From Candidatus Woesearchaeota archaeon (lineage in GTDB: Archaea > Nanobdellota > Nanobdellia > Woesearchaeales > GW2011-AR4): a stretch of DNA of 64,000 nucleotides. The notes beneath the pieces are model-generated. The model made no database searches, was not told the DNA's origin, and worked only from the letters and a program-made list of their open reading frames with translations. How positions within the stretch are numbered: the first letter of the stretch is position 1; the number at the start of each line of letters is the position of its first letter. Of this stretch, positions 9,334-64,000 are shown one piece after another. The position numbers were made by a program, and so were the translations under genes. The stretch spans positions 54,543 to 118,542 of the forward strand of contig NZDH01000004.1 in the NCBI GenBank assembly GCA_002688775.1. Reading direction: 5' to 3'.

Positions 9334-12300
9334 ATGAAAAAACTGAATAAAATATTAAGTGTAATGATTTTGATACTTGCATTTGTGTTATTTTCATCTA
9401 TTGTTTATGCTGCTCCTCTGACTGACATGTTTGTAGGCGGATTAATACAAATTAATGATTTCTTTGAAAATGAGCAATTTGCTCCTTATGCAACTGCAAT
9501 TGACTTTTTCTTCTTTACATTACTGTTCACAGCTATATATATGATGGGTGCAAGGTATGCATTTAAGGAAATTAAAAGACCAGAGCAAGTAATTGTGATT
9601 TTACTCGGATTAATGACTGGGTTTTTGCTTGTGTTAGGTGGTTTTTCAGCAACTATCATTCTTCCTTACATACAATGGCTTTTGTATTTGCTGCTGTTCT
9701 GGATAATCTGGAAATTATTAAGCGGAATAAAAAATCCATTCTGGAGATTTATATTGGCATTGCTGTTGACTTTGCTGCTGATTGCATTGTGGCAAGGGAT
9801 GTTTAATGCATTAACTACACCAGATGTTGGAGCTCCACAAGTTGGTGGATTTTTTGGTTCTATTGGCAAATTCTTTAGAGATCTTGGAAGCAGTTTTACA
9901 GGAATTAAGATGCCAGGAGTCGGAGTGCCTGGAATTCCTGATGCTTTACAGGATCTGTTAGGAGAGCCTGGCGGGGTTGGAGCTGGGGAACCTACTGGGC
10001 CTGAAGGGTTGCCTGTGGTTACGACGCCAACTGGACCAACTGTTGTGGAAGAAGACGGGGGATTTTCTTTAGGGAATTTGTGGTGGATTCCTATTTTAGC
10101 GGCATTATTGTGGGCAGGTAATTATGCGCGCAAGAAGGGATGGCATAAATGGAGACCACGTAAAAAAGATAAACCAAAAACAATAGATGAAGTTAAAGCA
10201 GAGATAGATGATATAATTAGGAAAAAAGCAAATTCTAAAAGAAATATTATAGCAAGAAGCGATGAAAAGAATCAAATTATTCAAGCTGAAGATAGAAGAA
10301 CTGCTTTTTTAAGCAAATTAAGAGATAAAGATCCTGCAAATCTGTTTGGAGATGAAGCTAGAAGAGTAATTGATGCCGAAGGTGGAGCTTTTAAGGAACT
10401 TCTTGACAAAGAAATTCAATTAGTAGATGAACTTAAAAAATTGAAAGGTATAGAGAAAGATTTGTATTTGAAATTAGATCTATGGCAACGATCTCTTCAA
10501 GGTACAGTTGATATAAGTCCAGAAGTAAATGGCCTTAAAATTTTGATTGGTAATAAGACAACTATTCGTGACATAATAAATATGGGTATAATATGGCTAA
10601 CTGTAATCTGCTATGATATTGAAAAACGAAATGAGGTATTGACTAAAGAATTAGGAAGCTTATTGGATGATGAAGATAAAATTGAGGAGCTTGTCCAAGG
10701 CAAATTTACAACTGTTAAAAATGATGAAAGAAAATTAAGTCATTATAATTCAACTGAAATTGAATATATTGAATTATTAGAGCAAAAAATTGATGAGCAG
10801 ATAAATAAATTAAATGAATTAAAAAGAAAAATTGAAGGAACTCCACATACAGGACCTTATGGTGCACCATACGGAGCGCCTTATGGAGCGCCAGGTGGAA
10901 GGCGTGGAGGACCTTATGGAGCTCCTTACGGGGCACCTTATAGTGGTCCTGGTAGTGCAGGACCAACACCTTCTGGAGGGACTGGAAGTCCTTATGGGGC
11001 TCCCTATAGTGCTGCTGGAGCTGGAGGAACTTATGGGGCACCATACGGAGCGCCTTATGGGGCTCCTTATGGAGCGCCAGGTGGAAGGCGTGGAGGACCT
11101 GGTAGAACGACTCCACCTAGAGGTAGAAGAAGAAGTGGCAGACTTAGAATTCTAATGCTCAGCCCAACGCACCCACATGCAAGCAATGGGGTTTCTGAAG
11201 TTGTGAAAAATTTATCTTTAGCTCTAAATTCAATCGGTGTAGATGTTGAGGTACTAACTAAATGGTTTAATGAGCCATATTATTACTATGATAAAATAAA
11301 TTCTGCAGAACAAAAATTTGACACTATTGGAGAATTTTTAAATTCAAAGAACAAAGATTATTATGATTTCATACATTCTCACACATTTACATTTTCACAG
11401 ATTTCTGATACTGGCGATGGAGAAACACCTTGGAATAAATTGTTATCCCATTTTAATGTTCCATCAGCTTATACAGTTCATTCTTTAGATATTCATGAAG
11501 CTTTAACATGTAAGTGGACTTCAACAAATTACAATTATCATAAGTGGGTTGGTGAACAACTTCAACCAGTAGTTTTTGATAGTGTAAACTGCATAATTCA
11601 ATTGACAAAAACCTATAAGGAATTAACTGAAGAAATGTATCCAGGAAAAAATTACAAGTATAAATCGGTTATAATCCCTAACGGTATAATTTTAAAAAAT
11701 AGATATTCAAAACGAACACCAAATCCAAGTGAGATTAATATGCTATACTTGGGTAGATTCGAAAGAAGAAAGGGAATATACGAATTATGTGTTGCTTTTG
11801 GGACCCTTACAAAAAAATATCCAAATTTAAAGCTCCATCTTGTAGGTAGTGGTCAACCGAGAACTCCAATTCCATGGTTTAATCGGGTTGATGTAGAAAC
11901 TAAAGTCATGAAAAGAATACTTAAAAGAGGGAGTGTACCAAGTGATAGGTATGTGCTCCACGGTGTAAAGCGGGGTACAGAGAAGGAAAACATAATTAAT
12001 GATGCTGATTTTGTCATATTACCAAGCTATTTTGAAACTTTCTGCCTAGTTGGCTTAGAAGCGATCAATCAAGCTAGACCACTAATATCATCAAAGGGTC
12101 CGGCTCTTAATGAAGTATACATAGAGAGCGGATTGGCTTATCCAATAGACTTTGGGGAGTTAAGGTACAATTCCGGAGTAAATTCACAGGGCTTTGTTAG
12201 GCTTAGAGTTGAAAAAATAGTTGAAGCAGTTTCAGGTTTCATAGATAACCTTGATGAATATAGGCAAAGATCTGAACAAGTTTGGCAACTAGTCCAAAGA

Positions 12301-22791: not shown

Positions 22792-24236
22792 TGCAATGCA
22801 GTGAATTTGTTGAAAAAGTAAAAAATAATGAGATAGATATTGTTGAGCATACTCATAAAGTCATTGAGGAGTGCAAAAAAATAAACAAGGATTATAATTA
22901 TTTCAATGTTGTCTCTGAAGAACTGGCTTTAGTCCAGGCAAACAAGCTAAAAAAACTGATAAACGGCAAGAAAGCAGATAATAAAAAATTACTGGGAGTT
23001 CCTGTTTCTGTTAAAGACAATATCTGCGTCAAGGGCGTTGAAAGCACTGCAGGCTCCAGAATCTTGAAGGGCTATAAGCCGTTATTCAATGCGACAGCGG
23101 TTGAAAATGCAATAAACCAAGGCGCAATCGTAATAGGAAAAACAAGCCAGGATGAATTCGGCTTTGGGGGCTTTTCTGTCAATGCTGGATTAGGATTTAA
23201 AATTCCTAAAAACCCTTTTGACAAGGAGAGAAGCTGCGGTGGAAGCTCCGGAGGTGCTGGTGGTTTAGCCCAGAAGGCTACTTTCCCCCACATTGCGCTG
23301 GGAGAGAGCACTGGCGGCAGTATTGCATGTCCTGCAAATTTTTGTGGAGTTTTTGGCTTAACACCAACTTATGGAATTGTTTCCAGATACGGCTTGATTG
23401 ATTATGGAAATTCCCTGGACAAGATAGGAACATTAGGAAAAAGTTCTAATGATGCTGGATTATTGCAAGAAGTTATTTCTGGTTATGATGAGAAAGACAG
23501 CACTTCCCTAAATGTTGAAAATGAAAGATATACTGAATACCTGGGAGGATCTGTGGAAGGTTTGAAGGTAGGCATCATAAAAGAAGCGTTTGGAAAGGGA
23601 AATGAAAAAGCAGTAGAAAATCAAGTTTACAAAGGAATTGAAACATTAAAGGAGAAAGGCGTTAAAGCTGAAGAAATATCCTTAGAAATGCCCATAAAAT
23701 ATGGATTAGCAACTTATTACATGATTGCAACTTCCGAAGCCTCTACAAACCTTGCCAAATACTGCGGAATGAGGTATGGAGCTGCTGAGAAATTAAGAGG
23801 GAGCTTTAATGAATATTTCACAAAAGTAAGAAGCAAAAATTTTGGCGATGAAGCTAAAAGAAGGGTAATTCTTGGAACTTTTGCAAGAATGGCCGGACAT
23901 AGAGATGCTTTTTACATTAAAGCTGCCAAAGTCAGGACAAAAATAATCAATGAATACAAGAAGGCTTTCAAACAATTTGATGCCTTGATCAGCCCAACAG
24001 TTCCAATATTGCCTCCGAAGTTTTCTGAAATTGAAAAATTAACGCCATTGCAGAATTACATGATAGACTCAATCCTGGTAGGCCCGAATATTGCTGGTTT
24101 GCCCCATCTAAGCGTGCCAATTGGTTATGATCAGAATCTTCCGGTCGGGATGCTGCTGACAGGAGATCATCTGCAAGAAAAAAAATTACTGCAATTGGGA
24201 AATTTGTTTGAAACAACAAAATTCCACTCATCTTAG
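22791..24236 (+). CDS. gatA: Asp/Glu-tRNA amidotransferase subunit A
   Basis: The amidase signature GGSSGG and the Ser-cisSer-Lys context are present. Confidence 0.85.
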   Translation: MQCSEFVEKVKNNEIDIVEHTHKVIEECKKINKDYNYFNVVSEELALVQANKLKKLINGKKADNKKLLGVPVSVKDNICVKGVESTAGSRILKGYKPLFNATAVENAINQGAIVIGKTSQDEFGFGGFSVNAGLGFKIPKNPFDKERSCGGSSGGAGGLAQKATFPHIALGESTGGSIACPANFCGVFGLTPTYGIVSRYGLIDYGNSLDKIGTLGKSSNDAGLLQEVISGYDEKDSTSLNVENERYTEYLGGSVEGLKVGIIKEAFGKGNEKAVENQVYKGIETLKEKGVKAEEISLEMPIKYGLATYYMIATSEASTNLAKYCGMRYGAAEKLRGSFNEYFTKVRSKNFGDEAKRRVILGTFARMAGHRDAFYIKAAKVRTKIINEYKKAFKQFDALISPTVPILPPKFSEIEKLTPLQNYMIDSILVGPNIAGLPHLSVPIGYDQNLPVGMLLTGDHLQEKKLLQLGNLFETTKFHSS

Positions 24237-24386
24237 ATGGGTGGTTAATTAGCTATATAACATTACATGGAATTTTGTGTGCTCAAAAACAACCCATCAA
24301 TAAGTGGAATTTTGAGTGTCAAAAACCACGCAATTATTATAATATATATAAACATCCACCCATCTATGATGGGTGGTTTTTGACAA

Positions 24387-25802
24387 ATGAAAAAATTCAC
24401 TAGCGATGTTGTCATTGGACTTGAGATCCATGTAGAGCTAGATACAAAAACTAAATTATTTTGTGGATGCTCTAAAAAGGGAGGTGAAGAACCAAACTCA
24501 AGGACTTGTGAAGTTTGTCTTGGCCATCCGGGAAGCAAGCCTGTATTGAACAAAAAAGCTGTTGAATTTGCCCTGAAATTAGGCCTGGCCTTGAATTGTG
24601 ACATCTCCAATGAATTGATTTTCTCAAGAAAATCCTATTTTTATCCTGACATGTCTAAGAATTATCAGATTACGCAATATGAAATCCCTCTTGGCAAGGG
24701 AGGAAATTTAAAATTGAAAGAAGGAAAGGAAATAGGGCTTATAAGAATCCATATGGAGGAAGATCCTGCTGCATTAGTTCATCCTGATGGATTAAAGGAA
24801 GGCTCTTATGTTTTGGTTGATTACAACAGAAGCGGGAATCCTTTGGTTGAGATCGTTACAGAACCGGATTTGACAAGCCCTGATGAAGCAAGGGATTTCA
24901 TGAAGCAATTGATCACTGTCTTAAGCTATCTTGAGATTTTTGACGAGAATAACGGAATAATAAAAGCTGATGCAAATGTCTCAGTAAAAGAAAGTGATTA
25001 TACACGAGTTGAGATAAAAAATATAACTGGATTTAAAGAAATTGAGAGAGCTTTGTTTTATGAAGTTGACAGGCAAAAAGAAGAAATTAAGCAAAGTAAA
25101 AAGGTTGAACAGGAAACAAGAGCCTGGGATTCTGAAAAAGGAGTTACTCTTTCTTTGAGAAAAAAAGAGACTGAAGAAGATTATGGCTATATAATTGATC
25201 CTGACCTGACTGTTACAGAAATTACCGATGAATTAATTGATAAAATCAAGAAAGAAATGCCTGAATTAGCCCAGGACAAAGTAAAGAAATTCATTGAAAA
25301 GCATAAAATCAAGAAAGAATATGCTGAGATTCTTGCTGCGCACAAGCAGCTTGCAGAAATGTTTGAGGATGTTGCAGAGCATATTGATCCTGTTTTAGCT
25401 GCAAAATGGATAAGAGGGGAATTAGTGAGAGTACTAAACTATGCCAAGAAAGAATTGCATGAAGTTGACATCAATAAAAAGCACATGATTGACCTGCTGA
25501 AATTGGTCGAAAGCAAAAAGATAACTGACAATGTTGCTGCAAAATTACTTGAGAAATTGATTGAAAAGCCTTTTGATGTCATTGAACATGTCAAGAAAGA
25601 AGGTCTTGAAGCTGTTTCTGATGTTTCAGAGCTGGAGAAGTACTGCAAAGAAGCGATAAAGGAGAATCCACAAGCTGTTGAGGACTACAAAAAAGGAGAA
25701 AAAAAGGCTTTGAATTTTATTGTTGGTTCTGTGATGAAGAAGACTCAAGGAAAGGCAACTCCTAAAGAGGTTAATGAGATTATTCTGAGATTAATAAGAT
25801 AA
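24387..25802 (+). CDS. gatB: Asp/Glu-tRNA amidotransferase subunit B
   Basis: VIGLEIHVELDTKTKLFCGCS is the GatB N-terminus, and a GatB/YqeY tail follows. Confidence 0.85.
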   Translation: MKKFTSDVVIGLEIHVELDTKTKLFCGCSKKGGEEPNSRTCEVCLGHPGSKPVLNKKAVEFALKLGLALNCDISNELIFSRKSYFYPDMSKNYQITQYEIPLGKGGNLKLKEGKEIGLIRIHMEEDPAALVHPDGLKEGSYVLVDYNRSGNPLVEIVTEPDLTSPDEARDFMKQLITVLSYLEIFDENNGIIKADANVSVKESDYTRVEIKNITGFKEIERALFYEVDRQKEEIKQSKKVEQETRAWDSEKGVTLSLRKKETEEDYGYIIDPDLTVTEITDELIDKIKKEMPELAQDKVKKFIEKHKIKKEYAEILAAHKQLAEMFEDVAEHIDPVLAAKWIRGELVRVLNYAKKELHEVDINKKHMIDLLKLVESKKITDNVAAKLLEKLIEKPFDVIEHVKKEGLEAVSDVSELEKYCKEAIKENPQAVEDYKKGEKKALNFIVGSVMKKTQGKATPKEVNEIILRLIR

Positions 25803-31287: not shown

Positions 31288-31389
31288 TAGCGGAGGCTAG
31301 ATTTGAACTAGCGACCTATGGGTTATGAGCCCATCGGGCACTCCTGATTGGGCGCCTGGAACAGAGTCCAAACTCTGCCCTACTCCGCT
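31288..31389 (-). tRNA. tRNA-Met(CAT), initiator-like (A1:U72, three G-C pairs closing the anticodon stem), with ~27-nt insertion in the D-arm region
   Basis: The minus-strand read is AGCGGAG-TA-[GGGC...48 nt...GCCC-G]-ATGGG-CTCATAA-CCCAT-AGGTC-GCTAG-TTCAAAT-CTAGC-CTCCGCT-A. The acceptor, anticodon and T arms are canonical. The D-arm segment is about 27 nt too long. Confidence 0.75.
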
Positions 31390-35272: not shown

Positions 35273-35358
35273 ATATTAGAAGGTTAATTTTGGCTATTTA
35301 TAAAATTTTGCCAATATTGTTCAAATTATTAAAATTCCAACAAGGTTGAAAATTGAGT

Positions 35359-35452
35359 GCAGAGGAAATTTCCATACGAAGTCTCAAAAATCGAAGATTT
35401 TTGACGATGATCGGAAATCTCTGATTTACCGACATGTGAAAATTTCCTCTGC
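35359..35452. repeat. 94-bp palindromic element bounded by a perfect 13-bp inverted repeat (GCAGAGGAAATTT...AAATTTCCTCTGC), containing inner hairpin TCAAAAATC-gaa-GATTTTTGA
   Basis: Related copies occur at ~63395-63487 and 63689-63723 and share GATC(G/A)...GAAAAT...CGACA(C/T)(A/G)T. A further hairpin GGCTTTTC-atcaa-GAAAAGCC lies at 35458-35478. Confidence 0.6.
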
Positions 35453-35554
35453 GAATAGGCTTTTCATCAAGAAAAGCCGTGTTTGAAACCATTGTTGTTG
35501 GAATTTTAATTTCAATAACAAAACTTATAAATCGTTATACTAATTTAAAATAAA

Positions 35555-57931: not shown

Positions 57932-60220
57932 TCAAACAACATTAACATTAATCAATTGCGTAACAGAATGAGTGCCATCGCTTACAGTTACTTTAACAGC
58001 TTTATTTCCTCTGCTTGTGAAAGTTCTTTGATGGTATTGCGTCCCTTTGTGCCTGTCAAAAAGACCGAAATCCCAGGTGTAAGTCAATTGGTTGTTGTCA
58101 TCGTCAACTGCTTTGACGAACATAAGGACTGGATCATTGACTTTTACAACTAAGTTTCTGCTATAATCAACTATTCTTGGAACTGTGCTTTGTGCAGCTG
58201 CCACTTGGCTGCTGCCATCCTGAATTACAACCTGATTGAATACTTTTGTTTCCCTGACTGTGACATTTATTTTACGAATTGACAGGTAGACTGTATCATT
58301 GAATAATAATCCTAATTCCTTGTCCGAATCGCGTACGAACACGTTCATCACATGATGCGCTTCATCTATTCCATCGCTTACAGTCACTATGACAGTTTTT
58401 GATCCAGGCGTAGTATAAACTCTTTGAAGATTTTCACCAGCTTTGTATTTCTCCAAAAGACCGAAATCCCAGGTGTAAGTCAATTGGTTGTTGTCATCGT
58501 CAACTGCTTTGACGAACATAAATACTGGCTGGTTTACATCTGTTATAAGGCCTTGAGTTGCATTAATGATTCTTGGAGGCCTGTTTTTATCGGTTACTTC
58601 AACTTTAGCGACTTGTTTTGAGGTTGCCTGGCCGTCGCTTGCAGCAAATACAAAATCAAAAGTTTTTGGCCCTTGGTAATTGGCAATAAATGAATGAGGC
58701 ACCCAAGTGAAAACATTTTCCTTTAATGTGAAGTCTGCAGGGGGGTTCTCTATGGAATAAGAAATATGGTCGCCATCTGGATCATGCGCATCAAGTACAA
58801 TAGTTACAGTATCCCCTTCATTTGCTTTAATATCCTTAATCTTATTTAATACTGGGGCCCTGTTAGATTGTCGAATGATTATTTGCACATTCTTTGAATC
58901 TTCCAATCTTCCATCGCTTACAGTCACTGTGACAGTATGGTTTCCTGCATCGTCAAATCCTGATTCATAGGTGTCAGAATTCATGAATCCCGAATAACTG
59001 AAGCTTAATTTATCGCCATCAAGATCGTATGCTTTAGGGGCAATGTTTACTGTTTCTCCTTCATTGATTGTCATAGTATCAAAATCTTCCAAAATTGGTG
59101 CCCTATTCACGTCTCTGACGGTTATTATAACATTACGGACAACTCTTTGGTCCTGTGAAGAAGCAACAAATTTTACGTAAAAGCTTTTAGTCAATATGTT
59201 AAGCTTGTCCATCACATAATCCACGAAATCATCTTTTTTGACAGTATCAAATCCAGGAGTCCATGTAAAAACATTCTCTTTAAATTCTGCCCCTGCAGGA
59301 ATCCTTTCTACACTATAGGTGACTTCTTCGCCATCAGGGTCTGTTGCGCTTAAAGTTATGATTATCTCCTGGTTTTCATTGATAACTTTACTGCCGATCC
59401 TGTCAAAAATTGGCGGCCTGTCTACGTTATTCACAACAACTTCCGCATCTGTTTCACCGCTAAATCCATTTCCTTCTGCTTTTACATTTATGTTGTAAGA
59501 GCCTTCACCATCATAAGTTGTCTGCCACTCGTTTCTGTTGCCAAGAGGCTCAGAAATTGTGTAGGTAAGGCCGTATTTTTCAAAATCAAGAAGTTCCAAT
59601 CTTGCAATCTCATTTTCATTGACAGTTACGTCTTGGATATCATCAAGTAATCTTTGAATATCAATATCCTGCACATTTACATCTCTTTCTTCACTTACTT
59701 TATGCAGACCATCTGATACTATTACAATCACTTTGTGGGTGCCTGCATCGCTGTACGAAGTGCTATAGAAATATTCCTGGCCTTCTTTGACTATTGTTCC
59801 ATCTAAATACCATTCGTAAGTTAAAGGATCATTGTTTAAGTCGCTTGCAGAAACTCTGAATTGTATTGTATCACTTTCCTTAGTGTTTACAGGATCCTCT
59901 TCTGGAACAAAAAGATCAATGGTTGGAGGTTCTTCTTTTCTTTCAACAATTATTAGTATATCCTCAGAATCGATTGCAAGGCCATCAGAAACAGTTATTG
60001 CTGTTTTGTATTCTCCAGCATCGCCGTATGTGGTCTGCCACGATCCATTTTCGTTTAATGGAGAATCATAGGTTGTGACCAAGTCATCATTATCCGGATC
60101 TATAGCTTCCGGCTTTAAGTTTATTTCATCAGTCTCTTGGATTACAAATGTGGTAAGAGAGTATACAAAATAGGGAAACACCAGAAATATAATTACTAGT
60201 AATGCAATGTTTCTCTTCAT
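57932..60220 (-). CDS. secreted surface protein with multiple PKD-like Ig-fold repeats
   Basis: A signal peptide opens the protein. The unit LTYxWxxDG...Y.Y.TxY.DAGxHxVxVxVSDG recurs, with TYTWDFGL as the PKD signature. Confidence 0.7.
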   Translation of the reverse strand: MKRNIALLVIIFLVFPYFVYSLTTFVIQETDEINLKPEAIDPDNDDLVTTYDSPLNENGSWQTTYGDAGEYKTAITVSDGLAIDSEDILIIVERKEEPPTIDLFVPEEDPVNTKESDTIQFRVSASDLNNDPLTYEWYLDGTIVKEGQEYFYSTSYSDAGTHKVIVIVSDGLHKVSEERDVNVQDIDIQRLLDDIQDVTVNENEIARLELLDFEKYGLTYTISEPLGNRNEWQTTYDGEGSYNINVKAEGNGFSGETDAEVVVNNVDRPPIFDRIGSKVINENQEIIITLSATDPDGEEVTYSVERIPAGAEFKENVFTWTPGFDTVKKDDFVDYVMDKLNILTKSFYVKFVASSQDQRVVRNVIITVRDVNRAPILEDFDTMTINEGETVNIAPKAYDLDGDKLSFSYSGFMNSDTYESGFDDAGNHTVTVTVSDGRLEDSKNVQIIIRQSNRAPVLNKIKDIKANEGDTVTIVLDAHDPDGDHISYSIENPPADFTLKENVFTWVPHSFIANYQGPKTFDFVFAASDGQATSKQVAKVEVTDKNRPPRIINATQGLITDVNQPVFMFVKAVDDDNNQLTYTWDFGLLEKYKAGENLQRVYTTPGSKTVIVTVSDGIDEAHHVMNVFVRDSDKELGLLFNDTVYLSIRKINVTVRETKVFNQVVIQDGSSQVAAAQSTVPRIVDYSRNLVVKVNDPVLMFVKAVDDDNNQLTYTWDFGLFDRHKGTQYHQRTFTSRGNKAVKVTVSDGTHSVTQLINVNVV
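58058..58522. repeat. intragenic ~70-bp near-identical direct duplication (copies at ~58058-58125 and ~58455-58522) within the PKD gene
   Basis: The shared sequence is aagaccgaaatcccaggtgtaagtcaattggttgttgtcatcgtcaactgctttgacgaacataa. The antisense track ORFs 57911..58153 and 58424..58621 share KTEIPGVSQLVVVIVNCFDEHK. Confidence 0.8.
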
Positions 60221-60376
60221 TTATTTCCCCCAACGGTTTAAAATTTAAAAATGTCAAAAATTTTCCACCAGTTTTAAACTGGTAGCTGGAAAGCTAAGTA
60301 TCAACTCTTTGTAGAAAATTTTTGATCATGCTCAAGAATCACTGGTCTGTGACCGGTGATTCTTGACAAATAAATA

Positions 60377-61462
60377 TCACTCTTTTTGCAATACATCTGT
60401 TATGACTGGAGGCCTGTTTTGATTCTCAACAGCTACTGTAAAAGTCTGTGAGGATTCATCTTGACCATCGCTTGCAGTTACAGTAACTTCGTAAGTGCCT
60501 GCACTGTCATAATCTGTTTGCCATCTGAAAACATTATCTTCCTGCTCAAATCTGCCATCGTCTATTTCATAAGTTACAGGATCTTCGTCATCATCTGTTG
60601 CTAATGCAGTTATTATAACTAAGTCGGTTTCTTTAACTTCTATGTGGTCTAAATCCTCTAAAACTGGCCTTCTGTTAACATTTCTAACTTCTACAGACCA
60701 AATCTTACTTGCACTTGACAATCCATCTGAAACATCAATTTTAACAGTGTGTGTGCCTGCGTCATCATAGGTTGTCTGGTATGTGTATTCTGCGTCATCT
60801 CCAACATCCAGGCCGTCAAGTTTCCATGAATAGGATAAAGGATCGTTGTTCAAGTCGCTTGCAACAACACTAAAATCTATAGATTCTGTCTCATCAATAA
60901 CTAATCCACTTTCAATTGGCCATGCACTGTCAATTGTTGGTGATTCTTCTTTTTTATTAACAATAATCAAAACATCTCTTGTTGTTGCTAATTCTCCGTC
61001 TGAAACAGTAACAGTAATTGTATACTCTCCGGAATCACCATAAATTGTCTGCCATTCGCCGGCATCGCTTATTGGAGAAGTAAATGTAAAAGTCAAATCA
61101 TCCCTATCAGGATCTTCTGCTTTTGGTATTAAGCTGATAAGATCTGTTTCCTGAACAACTAAAACAATAGGATTTTCTTTTTCTTCATCAACTACAATAA
61201 TGGTTGGTTCCTCTTCAGTTTCTTCTTCATCTGATACTTCTTCTTCAACATCTTCTTCTGTCTCTTCTTCCATGTCTTCTTCTGAATCTTCATCATCATC
61301 TACAGTTTCCTCGTCCCCATTATCCTGGACATCTGGCCCTTGTGTAGTATTTCCATAAAGAGTTTGATAAACCTCGCAACTGCTTAATAAAAATATAGAA
61401 AGCACTAATAATACAATCAATGATTTTGTTTTGAAATTGATCATAAACCCTCCCATTGCCAT
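60377..61462 (-). CDS. secreted surface protein with PKD-like repeats and an acidic D/E-rich N-terminal stretch
   Basis: A signal peptide is followed by DDDEDSEEDMEEETEEDVEEE and PKD-like units with SDG-ending strands. Confidence 0.65.
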   Translation of the reverse strand: MAMGGFMINFKTKSLIVLLVLSIFLLSSCEVYQTLYGNTTQGPDVQDNGDEETVDDDEDSEEDMEEETEEDVEEEVSDEEETEEEPTIIVVDEEKENPIVLVVQETDLISLIPKAEDPDRDDLTFTFTSPISDAGEWQTIYGDSGEYTITVTVSDGELATTRDVLIIVNKKEESPTIDSAWPIESGLVIDETESIDFSVVASDLNNDPLSYSWKLDGLDVGDDAEYTYQTTYDDAGTHTVKIDVSDGLSSASKIWSVEVRNVNRRPVLEDLDHIEVKETDLVIITALATDDDEDPVTYEIDDGRFEQEDNVFRWQTDYDSAGTYEVTVTASDGQDESSQTFTVAVENQNRPPVITDVLQKE

Positions 61463-61575: not shown

Positions 61576-61683
61576 TGGGCCTGCTCAGATTTGAACTGAG
61601 GACCAATCGATTATCAGTCGATCATTCTAATTGTCTAGTTAACCGGCAATTTGCTGGCAACTTCCAGACTGAACTACAGGCCC
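61576..61683 (-). tRNA. tRNA-Ile(GAT) with ~35-nt insertion in the D-arm/D-loop
   Basis: The minus-strand read is GGGCCTG-TA-GTTC-[AGTCTGG...52 nt...GAAT]-G-ATCGA-CTGATAA-TCGAT-TGGTC-CTCAG-TTCAAAT-CTGAG-CAGGCCC-A. The acceptor, anticodon and T arms are canonical. Confidence 0.7.
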
Positions 61684-61691
61684 AAAATAAA

Positions 61692-63311: not shown

Positions 63312-63514
63312 AGTTATTTAGTATGGTTTATCATCTTAAAAAGGTTTTGAATGTGATAAAAACGTCAAAAACCAACAGACAATTTTGTCTCGGTTTTTGA
63401 GCGTGATCGAAAATACACCATAATACCCAGCTGCATATGAGTTATATGCGTCCATTAAAGACTGATGGTGTATTATTCGACACATTTAAATTAACACAGT
63501 GAATCTATTTTCAT

Positions 63515-64000
63515 ATGCTAACATTAATTGCGATTATTTTATTTCTAATAATTATGGTAATCTTATTTTTGATAAACTTCTATAAGGATCCTGAAAGGAA
63601 GATTCCAAAAGGCAGCAATATAGTTGCTCCGGCAGATGGAAGAGTGATAAGTATAATAGACATGTCGGCAAATCACAAAGTGATTTCCGATCATGCTCGA
63701 AAATCTTCGATTTTCGACACATCAAAGAAATATATAACAATAAAAAAAGGCATTCTTGGAAAAATCAAAGTATGGTCGAAGGATATAGCGAAAGAATGTT
63801 TGGTTGTTTCAATTTTCATGTCGCCTTTTGATGCACATATAAACAGAGCGCCGATAGAAGGCATTGTAAAATCAACAAAGCATACAAAAGGCAGATTCTT
63901 CAAGGCTTATGATTTAGAAAAAAGTTTTAGGAATGAAAACAACCAGATTGTAATTTCAAATAAAAAAATAAAAATTAAAGTTATACAAATTGCTGGATTT
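63515..64000 (+). CDS. psd: phosphatidylserine decarboxylase-like protein (3' end outside window)
   Basis: The ORF is open from the ATG at 63515 to the window end. An N-terminal TM helix precedes FMSPFDAHINRAPIEG, which matches the PSD MSPxDxHRxxAP motif. It is absent from the ORF track because it has no stop. Confidence 0.6.
   Translation, partial: MLTLIAIILFLIIMVILFLINFYKDPERKIPKGSNIVAPADGRVISIIDMSANHKVISDHARKSSIFDTSKKYITIKKGILGKIKVWSKDIAKECLVVSIFMSPFDAHINRAPIEGIVKSTKHTKGRFFKAYDLEKSFRNENNQIVISNKKIKIKVIQIAGF

Follow-up and report, generated by a model that had tools for sequence, protein, structure and literature searches.

A dispersed two-hairpin palindromic DNA family in Woesearchaeota-type archaea, with an in-frame copy in psd

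Short dispersed palindromic repeats that lie between genes and also in frame in unrelated housekeeping genes, the RPEs, have been described in Rickettsia (PMC10969869, PMC3733652), and REPIN-RAYT systems are documented for bacteria (PMC3116915, 10.1101/2022.05.22.493013). The literature also describes MITEs in a few cultured archaea, and one Woesearchaea genome has been reported as MITE-dense, as a bare statistic only (PMC11602168). No description of the family presented here, or of in-frame palindromic insertion in archaea, was found in the literature searched, and the family appears to be undescribed in archaea. A preliminary description of a 64-kb stretch of DNA (here called the window) had proposed that a 94-bp intergenic palindrome belongs to a dispersed MITE- or RPE-like family with one copy inside psd.

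Like RPEs, the archaeal core, a pair of adjacent hairpins, is dispersed, occurs in frame in housekeeping genes, adds a tolerated peptide, and is constrained as a nucleotide palindrome. Unlike RPEs, which are about 100 to 150 bp long and belong to Rickettsia, the core has only 57 to 63 nt, is a doublet of two hairpins, and has DPANN archaea as hosts; beyond what RPEs offer, it gives direct evidence of nesting in hairpin loops and of recurrent use of one codon position. To our knowledge, the core consensus has no sequence relationship to the Rickettsia RPE-1 to RPE-10 families. The core resembles REP and REPIN sequences in its imperfect, bulged hairpins, its doublet of opposite polarity, its multicopy, largely intergenic and, within the lineage, long-lived occurrence, and its short conserved motif at the 5' foot, and its linker is divided 2 + 2 nt between the two stems. 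It differs from REPIN/RAYT systems in its 5' tag, which is A-N-A-TG rather than GTAG or CGTC, and in that one third of its copies lie in open reading frames. By sequence, tag, or host, the element is a member of neither the RPEs nor the REPIN/RAYT systems.

Table 1. Coordinates of the element copies, their surroundings, and the transposase genes discussed in the text (window positions unless a locus is named)
Feature	Position	Strand	Evidence or remark
94-nt palindrome	35359..35452	.	Locus-specific closing stem P1 around the two-hairpin core
Two-hairpin core, intergenic copy	35379..35437	-	Covariance model R1, 70.9 bits, E = 1.4e-11
Accessory hairpin Pa, GGCTTTTC atcaa GAAAAGCC	35458..35478	.	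Part of the composite; predicted fold
Composite element of ~190 nt carrying the core	35320..35515	-	Homologous copies in L143, L160, L114, and L038
Degenerate or related copy	60307..60371	+	R1, 31.7 bits, E = 4e-4
Expanded, diverged family copy, intergenic, upstream of psd	63363..63482	+	R1 partial match
psd, archaeal-type phosphatidylserine decarboxylase (host gene)	63515..64000	+	Pfam PF02666, E = 8e-23; runs off the window end
57-nt core, in frame in psd	63663..63719	+	R1, 66.9 bits; empty-site comparison
Y1_Tnp (IS200-type)	L087 3632-4090; L096 167-580; L153 2445-2972		Pfam E = 1e-27 to 1e-31

The intergenic palindrome (Table 1) lies in a window of ~35% G+C and is bounded by a perfect 13-nt inverted repeat, GCAGAGGAAATTT at 35359-35371 with its exact complement at 35440-35452. 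Stem P1, which extends this repeat to 16 bp with one G.T (35359-35374 paired with 35437-35452), encloses the hairpin TCAAAAATC-gaa-GATTTTTGA at 35384-35404 and a second hairpin, TCGGAAATC-tct-GATTTaCCGA, at 35411-35432. The inverted repeats and the first of these hairpins are present just as originally described. Against shuffled sequences, the folding z score of the region was -5.3 on the plus strand and -6.4 on the minus strand, and 0 of 200 shuffles equaled it. Read on the minus strand, the core consists of hairpin P2 (35411-35432), a 6-nt linker (35405-35410), and hairpin P3 (35384-35404), and each stem has a 2-bp extension past a 1-nt bulge. The window holds no second full-length 94-nt unit, and the part that is repeated is the inner core of ~57 nt. 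The proposed dispersal therefore holds for the inner two-hairpin core and not for the 94-bp unit to which it had been assigned.

The second clear copy in the window is the bare core in psd, where it encodes most of ..DMSANHKVISDHARKSSIFD.. and is translated as a 19-aa insertion. P0001, a TARA mesopelagic sequence of 219 aa, shares 100% identity with the window Psd product, whose closest named homologues belong to Woesearchaeota or Nanoarchaeota. Since GACA flanks both ends of the insert, its register can shift by as much as 4 nt. The outer 13-nt inverted repeat is missing from the psd copy, relative to which the intergenic copy is inverted: 35378-35422 and 63679-63723 form the best and longest inverted repeat of the 64-kb window (45 nt, 84%). 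If an indel of 4 nt in a loop is allowed, homology extends over both hairpins, between 35379-35437 (minus strand) and 63660-63722 (plus strand), and the same covariance model fits both copies (Table 1). The in-frame recurrence in psd had been noticed before, but in a register that paired hairpin 1 of the element with hairpin 2 of psd; this weaker register worked only through the likeness between the two hairpins. Because of the 4-nt loop indel, the frames of the two copies disagree, which indicates that their similarity is not protein-derived.

Diverged members of the family were also found in the window. The expanded copy upstream of the gene matches R1 with 24 bits (E = 0.012) over 63360-63420 and folds with a z score of -5.4. 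Both of its hairpins are enlarged (hairpin 1, TCAAAAACC...GGTTTTTGA; hairpin 2, TCGAAAATACACCAT...ATGGTGTATTATTCGA), and its linker, GCGTGA, pairs with the flanks as in the rest of the family. The preliminary description had rightly related this region to the element but had placed it at 63395-63487, so that its true start was missed. In the degenerate or related copy, the linker is GATCATGC, the P3-like hairpin is TCAAGAATCACTGGTC tgt GACCGGTGATTCTTGA, and P2 has collapsed; this copy occupies a 156-nt gap between two minus-strand surface-protein genes. The flanking genes (57932-61462, minus strand) encode two adjacent large secreted proteins with repeated domains of ~130 aa, and their DNA contains repeats at 396- and 1014-nt spacing. 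A further intergenic region, 24190-24390, is dense in related palindromes, to which R1 gives weak matches of 11 to 14 bits. It contains two CCACyCATCT..GATGGGTGG hairpins (24224-24244 and 24356-24376), one of them surrounded by the long-range pair GTCAAAAACCAC / GTGGTTTTTGAC; in other genomes, this CCAC hairpin hosts the two-hairpin core.

With only two clear copies in the 64-kb window and a genome of 35% G+C, the resemblance might be put down to chance among AT-rich palindromes or to a psd fragment that was duplicated once into the intergenic region. Both versions are contradicted by the model E values of ~1e-11, by hundreds of copies in other genomes and contexts, by the lack of the insert in most psd genes, and by the loop indel that puts the copies in different frames; we regard this explanation as scarcely credible.

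Copies beyond the window, as had been predicted, were found in number. A strict scan pattern built from six copies (TTTCYGA-N6-TCRAAAATC-N3-GATTTTYGA) had 106 matching stretches in 185,579 species-representative genomes, at least 120 in metagenomes, and 0 in 2.9 million viral contigs. All titled genome records with the pattern are archaeal MAGs, mostly of Woesearchaeota, Pacearchaeota, or Nanoarchaeota, with up to 6 copies (counted as contigs matched) per MAG. The covariance model R1 added diverged copies, as in a single 8-kb locus with 4 model matches, and 209 distinct copies were analyzed. Many third-party MAGs named "uncultured Methanosarcinales archaeon" (CAZ- and CAY-prefixed records, e.g., L006, L007, and L025) also carry the element; this NCBI name is probably wrong for them.

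The anatomy of the core was derived from an alignment of 60 copies, in which part of the observed stem invariance is imposed by the search pattern. The core spans ~57 to 63 nt and comprises two adjacent hairpins of opposite polarity, P2 and P3, with the consensus [A-N-A] TG-TCRGAAAT(C)..loop..(G)ATTTCYGA-n-CA / YR-n-TCRAAAATC-NNN-GATTTTYGA-YR. Both are 11-bp stems with one bulged base 2 bp above the foot, which lies on the 3' strand in P2 and on the 5' strand in P3. Because the bulges lie on opposite strands, the module amounts to a single type of hairpin present twice, in opposite polarity. The 6-nt linker consists, in order, of a bulge, 2 nt that pair with the 5' flank, 2 nt that pair with the 3' flank, and a bulge, and the covariation between linker and flanks is without exception (TG/CA, CA/TG, TC/GA, CG/CG, and CT/AG). 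The distal part of P2 is variable, with loops of 3 to ~45 nt; in P3, an upper stem fixed at 9 bp carries a triloop. Overall, 99.6% of the alignment cells are paired, 8 pairs show double changes, and 174 cells are compensatory; 0 of 500 shuffles reached the observed covariation, and slid registers came nowhere near it. Among the changes in P2, G.T outnumbers A.C by 10:1. The alignment, which had been suggested as a means of defining the termini, showed that sequence conservation stops at the hairpin feet, except for a 5' A-N-A just upstream of the P2-foot TG (profile A(0.74)-N-A(0.79)-T-G). Copies of JACQNA01 aligned within that genome have a larger composite in common, with no sharp boundary visible. 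A search of Rfam 15 at gathering and permissive thresholds returned no family (best score, at most 19 bits against thresholds of 40 to 195), and ARAGORN found nothing relevant in the element regions. C/D-box, K-turn, hammerhead, SRP, and RNase P readings were judged by eye and rejected, as their motifs do not fit.

In psd, filled sites can be compared with empty ones. An uninterrupted ..ISII/DTSK.. stands in 108 of the 118 full-length Psd orthologues, which thus lack the insert, and its carriers are scattered phylogenetically; the segment is therefore an insertion, as had been suspected. Five of the 118 carry the element, with inserts of 19 to 31 aa (the window protein P0001, P0002, P0003, P0019, and P0054), and in another 5 a palindromic insert of a different, GC-rich kind lies a few residues farther downstream. 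When the insert columns were masked, the nearest relatives were all without the insert (identity, 88% for P0002, 83% for P0003, 86% for P0019, and 75% for P0001), and the five carriers were neither a clade nor mutual closest relatives. To account for this scatter, either the element was gained independently several times at this one codon or it was precisely lost more than once. Deletion of the 57 nt (Table 1) from filled sites restores the codon register and junction sequence of the empty site; slight differences remain in the flanks because the sites come from different genomes, and no filled/empty event between near-identical genomes was present among the sequences compared. The psd junctions share 4 to 9 nt (GACA, up to GACACGTCA), and this shared sequence resembles the element's own joined ends (..TTGACA/TGTCRG..). 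A direct repeat of 5 to 9 nt at the junctions fits a target duplication, a site-specific core, or a chance resemblance between the D-T-S codons and the element end.

The psd insert evolves differently from its host gene. Between L003 and L004, nucleotide identity was 93% in the insert versus 82% in the rest of psd, and identity at third codon positions was 94% versus 66%, with amino acid identities of 81% and 82%, respectively. The two loci probably inherited the insert together. The far higher third-codon identity within the insert demonstrates constraint on the nucleotide sequence and not on the peptide. In an AlphaFold2 prediction, the insert falls in a segment with a pLDDT of <50 between two confident strands, which fits a tolerated loop, although the shallow alignment at these columns also lowers pLDDT.

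The GC-rich inserts of the other Psd orthologues represent a second palindromic insertion family, AGTCGAATGCGAG...CTCGCTCACAACTCAC, with the peptide ..SRMR...LAHNS... This family is in frame in Psd P0013, P0016, P0027, P0042, and P0064, a few codons downstream of the first site, and also occurs inside loops of the AT-rich element (L234 460-540, the P2 loop of L055, and L038 3735-3790). Its presence in both settings indicates that several small palindromic families co-circulate.

Across the family, 143 of the 209 copies lie outside and 66 inside open frames of at least 100 codons. Of these 66, 36 share the psd sense frame, which yields a short hydrophilic peptide (..MSEIxxISEHAQKSxIFD..), 6 are in the other open sense frame, and 13 are in one antisense frame that would give a similar hydrophilic peptide. 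The in-frame tolerance proposed by analogy with RPEs is borne out by copies inside Pfam domains of genuine genes, namely, the CarA GATase domain, the ribonucleotide reductase barrel, and PGA_cap. Further in-frame copies lie at the N terminus of a class I LysRS and, in L176 (ORF 1014-2079, reverse-complement locus coordinates), just downstream of an RVT_1 domain. The element persists in essential genes only in frames that yield the short hydrophilic peptide.

DPANN genomes are rich in unusual introns, and the in-gene copies could in principle be archaeal introns that the tRNA-splicing endonuclease cuts from the mRNA, leaving Psd uninterrupted. The insert is indeed a compact structured RNA, and two tRNA genes of the window seem to bear noncanonical insertions. 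However, the core does not contain a bulge-helix-bulge (3-nt bulges and a 4-bp helix) but has single-nucleotide bulges at the bases of two separate hairpins. The preference for a frame with a hydrophilic, stop-free peptide (36 copies versus 6 in the other open sense frame) also counts against splicing, because a spliced-out segment would have no need of it. We therefore judge the intron explanation to be very improbable. The tRNA-like genes, at 61582-61685 and 31296-31385 (both minus strand), have apparent D-arm insertions of ~30 to 40 nt, a noncanonical intron position; one reads Ile (GAU-like anticodon loop CTGATAA), and the other reads Met (CAT). ARAGORN missed both genes, and Rfam matched the 3' part of one (31292-31344, 30 bits).

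In the window, the intergenic core is carried by a composite of ~190 nt (Table 1), laid out as an outer repeat, the accessory hairpin Pa, P1, and the core in the apical loop. The outer inverted repeat (15 nt) is TTAAAATTCCAACAA at 35329-35343 and 35495-35509, and the conserved ends are ..AAATTCCAACAAGGnTGAAAAyTGAGTGCAGAGG.. and ..CCGTGTTTGA..TTGTTGTTGGAATTT.. Hairpin Pa is kept, with compensatory change, in L114, L143, and L038, and P1 covaries among the homologous composites, with 8 pairs altered on both sides. No recurrence of the P1 arm sequence was found elsewhere, and the outer stems are locus specific. All four homologous composites adjoin unrelated genes, and tblastn revealed no synteny between the composite loci. 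On this ground, the composite was rejected as an orthologous intergenic region or as a riboswitch of the neighboring aminotransferase gene.

The position of the core varies from one host palindrome to another. In L168 and L036, it is located in the loop of the accessory hairpin instead, and in L052 and L127 it lies within a CCACCCATC..GATGGGTGG hairpin. These differences indicate that the core moves independently of its carriers. L038 has two composite copies, mutually inverted, one of which has an internal deletion. Nested copies were found within the P3 arm of another copy in L017, L018, and L195, and copies also sit inside the loops of other palindromes; flanking complementarity of 7 nt or more was seen for 25% of copies versus 6.5% of permuted controls. 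Between codirectional genes, 29 copies are in the sense and 33 in the antisense orientation, i.e., there is no orientation preference.

These data bear on whether the core is instead a functional structured RNA, either an sRNA gene or a pair of mRNA hairpins for cis-regulation or processing. In the former case, 35359-35478 would be an sRNA that, made from the plus strand, is ~84% complementary to the insert in the psd mRNA and regulates psd in trans. The strong stem covariation, the conserved single-stranded joining segments of the ~190-nt composite, the 10-to-1 excess of G.U-compatible over A.C changes in P2, the TATA-like A/T boxes read from the sequence on both sides of the composite, and the complementarity of the intergenic copy and psd over 45 to 59 nt would all suit an RNA. 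Nevertheless, the core matches no Rfam family, its intergenic orientation is unbiased, and the composite copies are nonsyntenic; moreover, copies occur in both orientations in unrelated coding genes, nested, and with deletion derivatives and inverted duplicates. An antisense sRNA acting on psd was downgraded because inverted copies of any dispersed repeat are automatically complementary and because orientation is unbiased. We consider a structured RNA as the basis of the family to be quite unlikely.

Genes near the element loci were also surveyed for a mobilizing enzyme. When 1,907 ORFs within 2.5 kb of copies were clustered, no recurrent transposase or other gene was found beside the copies. 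The clustering gave only a group of reverse transcriptases from 4 loci and a group from 6 loci with a representative that, judged by its sequence, appears to be PIN-like. RVT_1 reverse-transcriptase genes lie near the element in 4 loci, including L176 and L215 (191-1343); they look retroelement-like and may come from a diversity-generating retroelement. A phmmer search with an approximate IS200 TnpA-like query identified three Y1_Tnp genes in 1.5 Mb of element loci (Table 1). The hairpins that flank these genes, such as CCCTACACTTTAGTGTAGGG and CCCCACAGCTTGCTGTGG, are unrelated to the core. Neither a RAYT-like gene flanked by core copies nor an autonomous IS with the ends of the core was seen in these loci.

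Like IS200/IS605-derived PATEs and MITEs, the core is nonautonomous and has a hairpin at each end; its psd insertion lies beside a short motif without an obvious large duplication, and Y1_Tnp genes occur in the same genome group. Unlike IS200/IS605-derived elements, it is too compact for IS608-type guide sequences and does not share the end hairpins of the Y1_Tnp genes found. In comparison with classical MITEs, the core showed no conserved terminal inverted repeats or clear target-site duplication: it ends at the hairpin feet, the 5 to 9 nt shared at the psd junctions also resemble the element ends, and TIR-like ends were seen only on the ~190-nt composite. Of the original MITE/RPE-like label, the RPE-like part stands, and the data do not establish a MITE proper, with cognate transposase, target-site duplication, and terminal inverted repeats that are conserved.

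The failure to find an adjacent transposase would also be expected if the hairpins were domesticated host sites, bound as DNA or cruciforms by a conserved DPANN protein (nucleoid, topoisomerase, or replication related) and maintained by selection rather than by ongoing transposition. Enterobacterial BIMEs, to which IHF and gyrase bind, are an example of such binding. Sites of this kind would agree with the unbiased orientation, with the nucleotide-level constraint on the psd insert, and with the conservation of the 9-nt stem sequences in many Woese-, Pace-, and Nanoarchaeota MAGs. On the other hand, part of the stem conservation is imposed by the search pattern, and the patchy, recurrent insertion at one psd codon, the nesting, and the copies in catalytic domains would go unexplained. 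Binding is also compatible with mobility, and REPINs combine both properties. Host sites maintained without transposition are thus an improbable account of the family.

Taken together, the multicopy and patchy occurrence, the recurrent site, the nesting, the deletion derivatives, the nucleotide constraint, and the orientation neutrality point to selfish, probably mobile palindromic DNA. With a probability of roughly 0.75, we interpret the element as a dispersed, noncoding, selfish palindromic DNA family of Woesearchaeota-type (DPANN) archaea; the family is probably mobile and REPIN/RPE-like. An RNA-level function or binding by a host protein could coexist with mobility, and the phylum-wide stem conservation and the G.T excess in P2 could reflect a host function or RNA role instead.

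Under the selfish-DNA reading, the core would spread in the form of folded single-stranded DNA on which a structure-specific HUH/Y1 enzyme acts in trans, for which a RAYT or an IS200-like protein is a candidate only. It would insert just 3' of A-N-A, with a preference for hairpin loops or for GACAYGTC sites, which resemble its own joined ends, and without a large target duplication. The intergenic copy in the window is a core in the apical loop of a ~190-nt composite, and the psd copy is a bare core. We prefer a single-stranded DNA mechanism with an HUH/Y1 enzyme because the element is defined by structure, prefers hairpin loops, and inserts at a short motif without a clear duplication.

A more speculative proposal is that the core, more than selfish DNA alone, is a lineage-wide signal for a conserved DPANN factor acting at the DNA or RNA level. 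In that case, dozens of unrelated housekeeping genes (psd, carA, nrd, lysS, and others) would receive from their in-frame copies a shared tag of ~19 aa (..MSEIxxISEHAQKSxIFD..) and a shared pair of RNA hairpins as a coordinated regulatory or processing handle, possibly with pairing in trans, e.g., of 35379-35437 with psd mRNA. We consider this unlikely.

If the element is indeed selfish palindromic DNA, in-frame palindromic insertion would have had a separate origin in symbiotic DPANN archaea, whose genomes are reduced, and many odd "insertions" in annotated DPANN proteins would be explained. The core would serve as a compact sequence marker for the lineage. With its 57 nt, recurrent target, and hairpin-loop preference, it would also be a tractable system for REP-like movement without an adjacent transposase and would permit tests of whether the inserts are neutral, act in regulation, or supply new protein loops. 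The family likewise calls for caution in gene calling and in the discovery of intergenic RNA motifs in DPANN MAGs. Elsewhere in the window, 10839-11112 is a coding tandem repeat with 12-nt periodicity that, by eye, is rich in Gly, Ala, Pro, and Tyr (..GAPYGAPY..).
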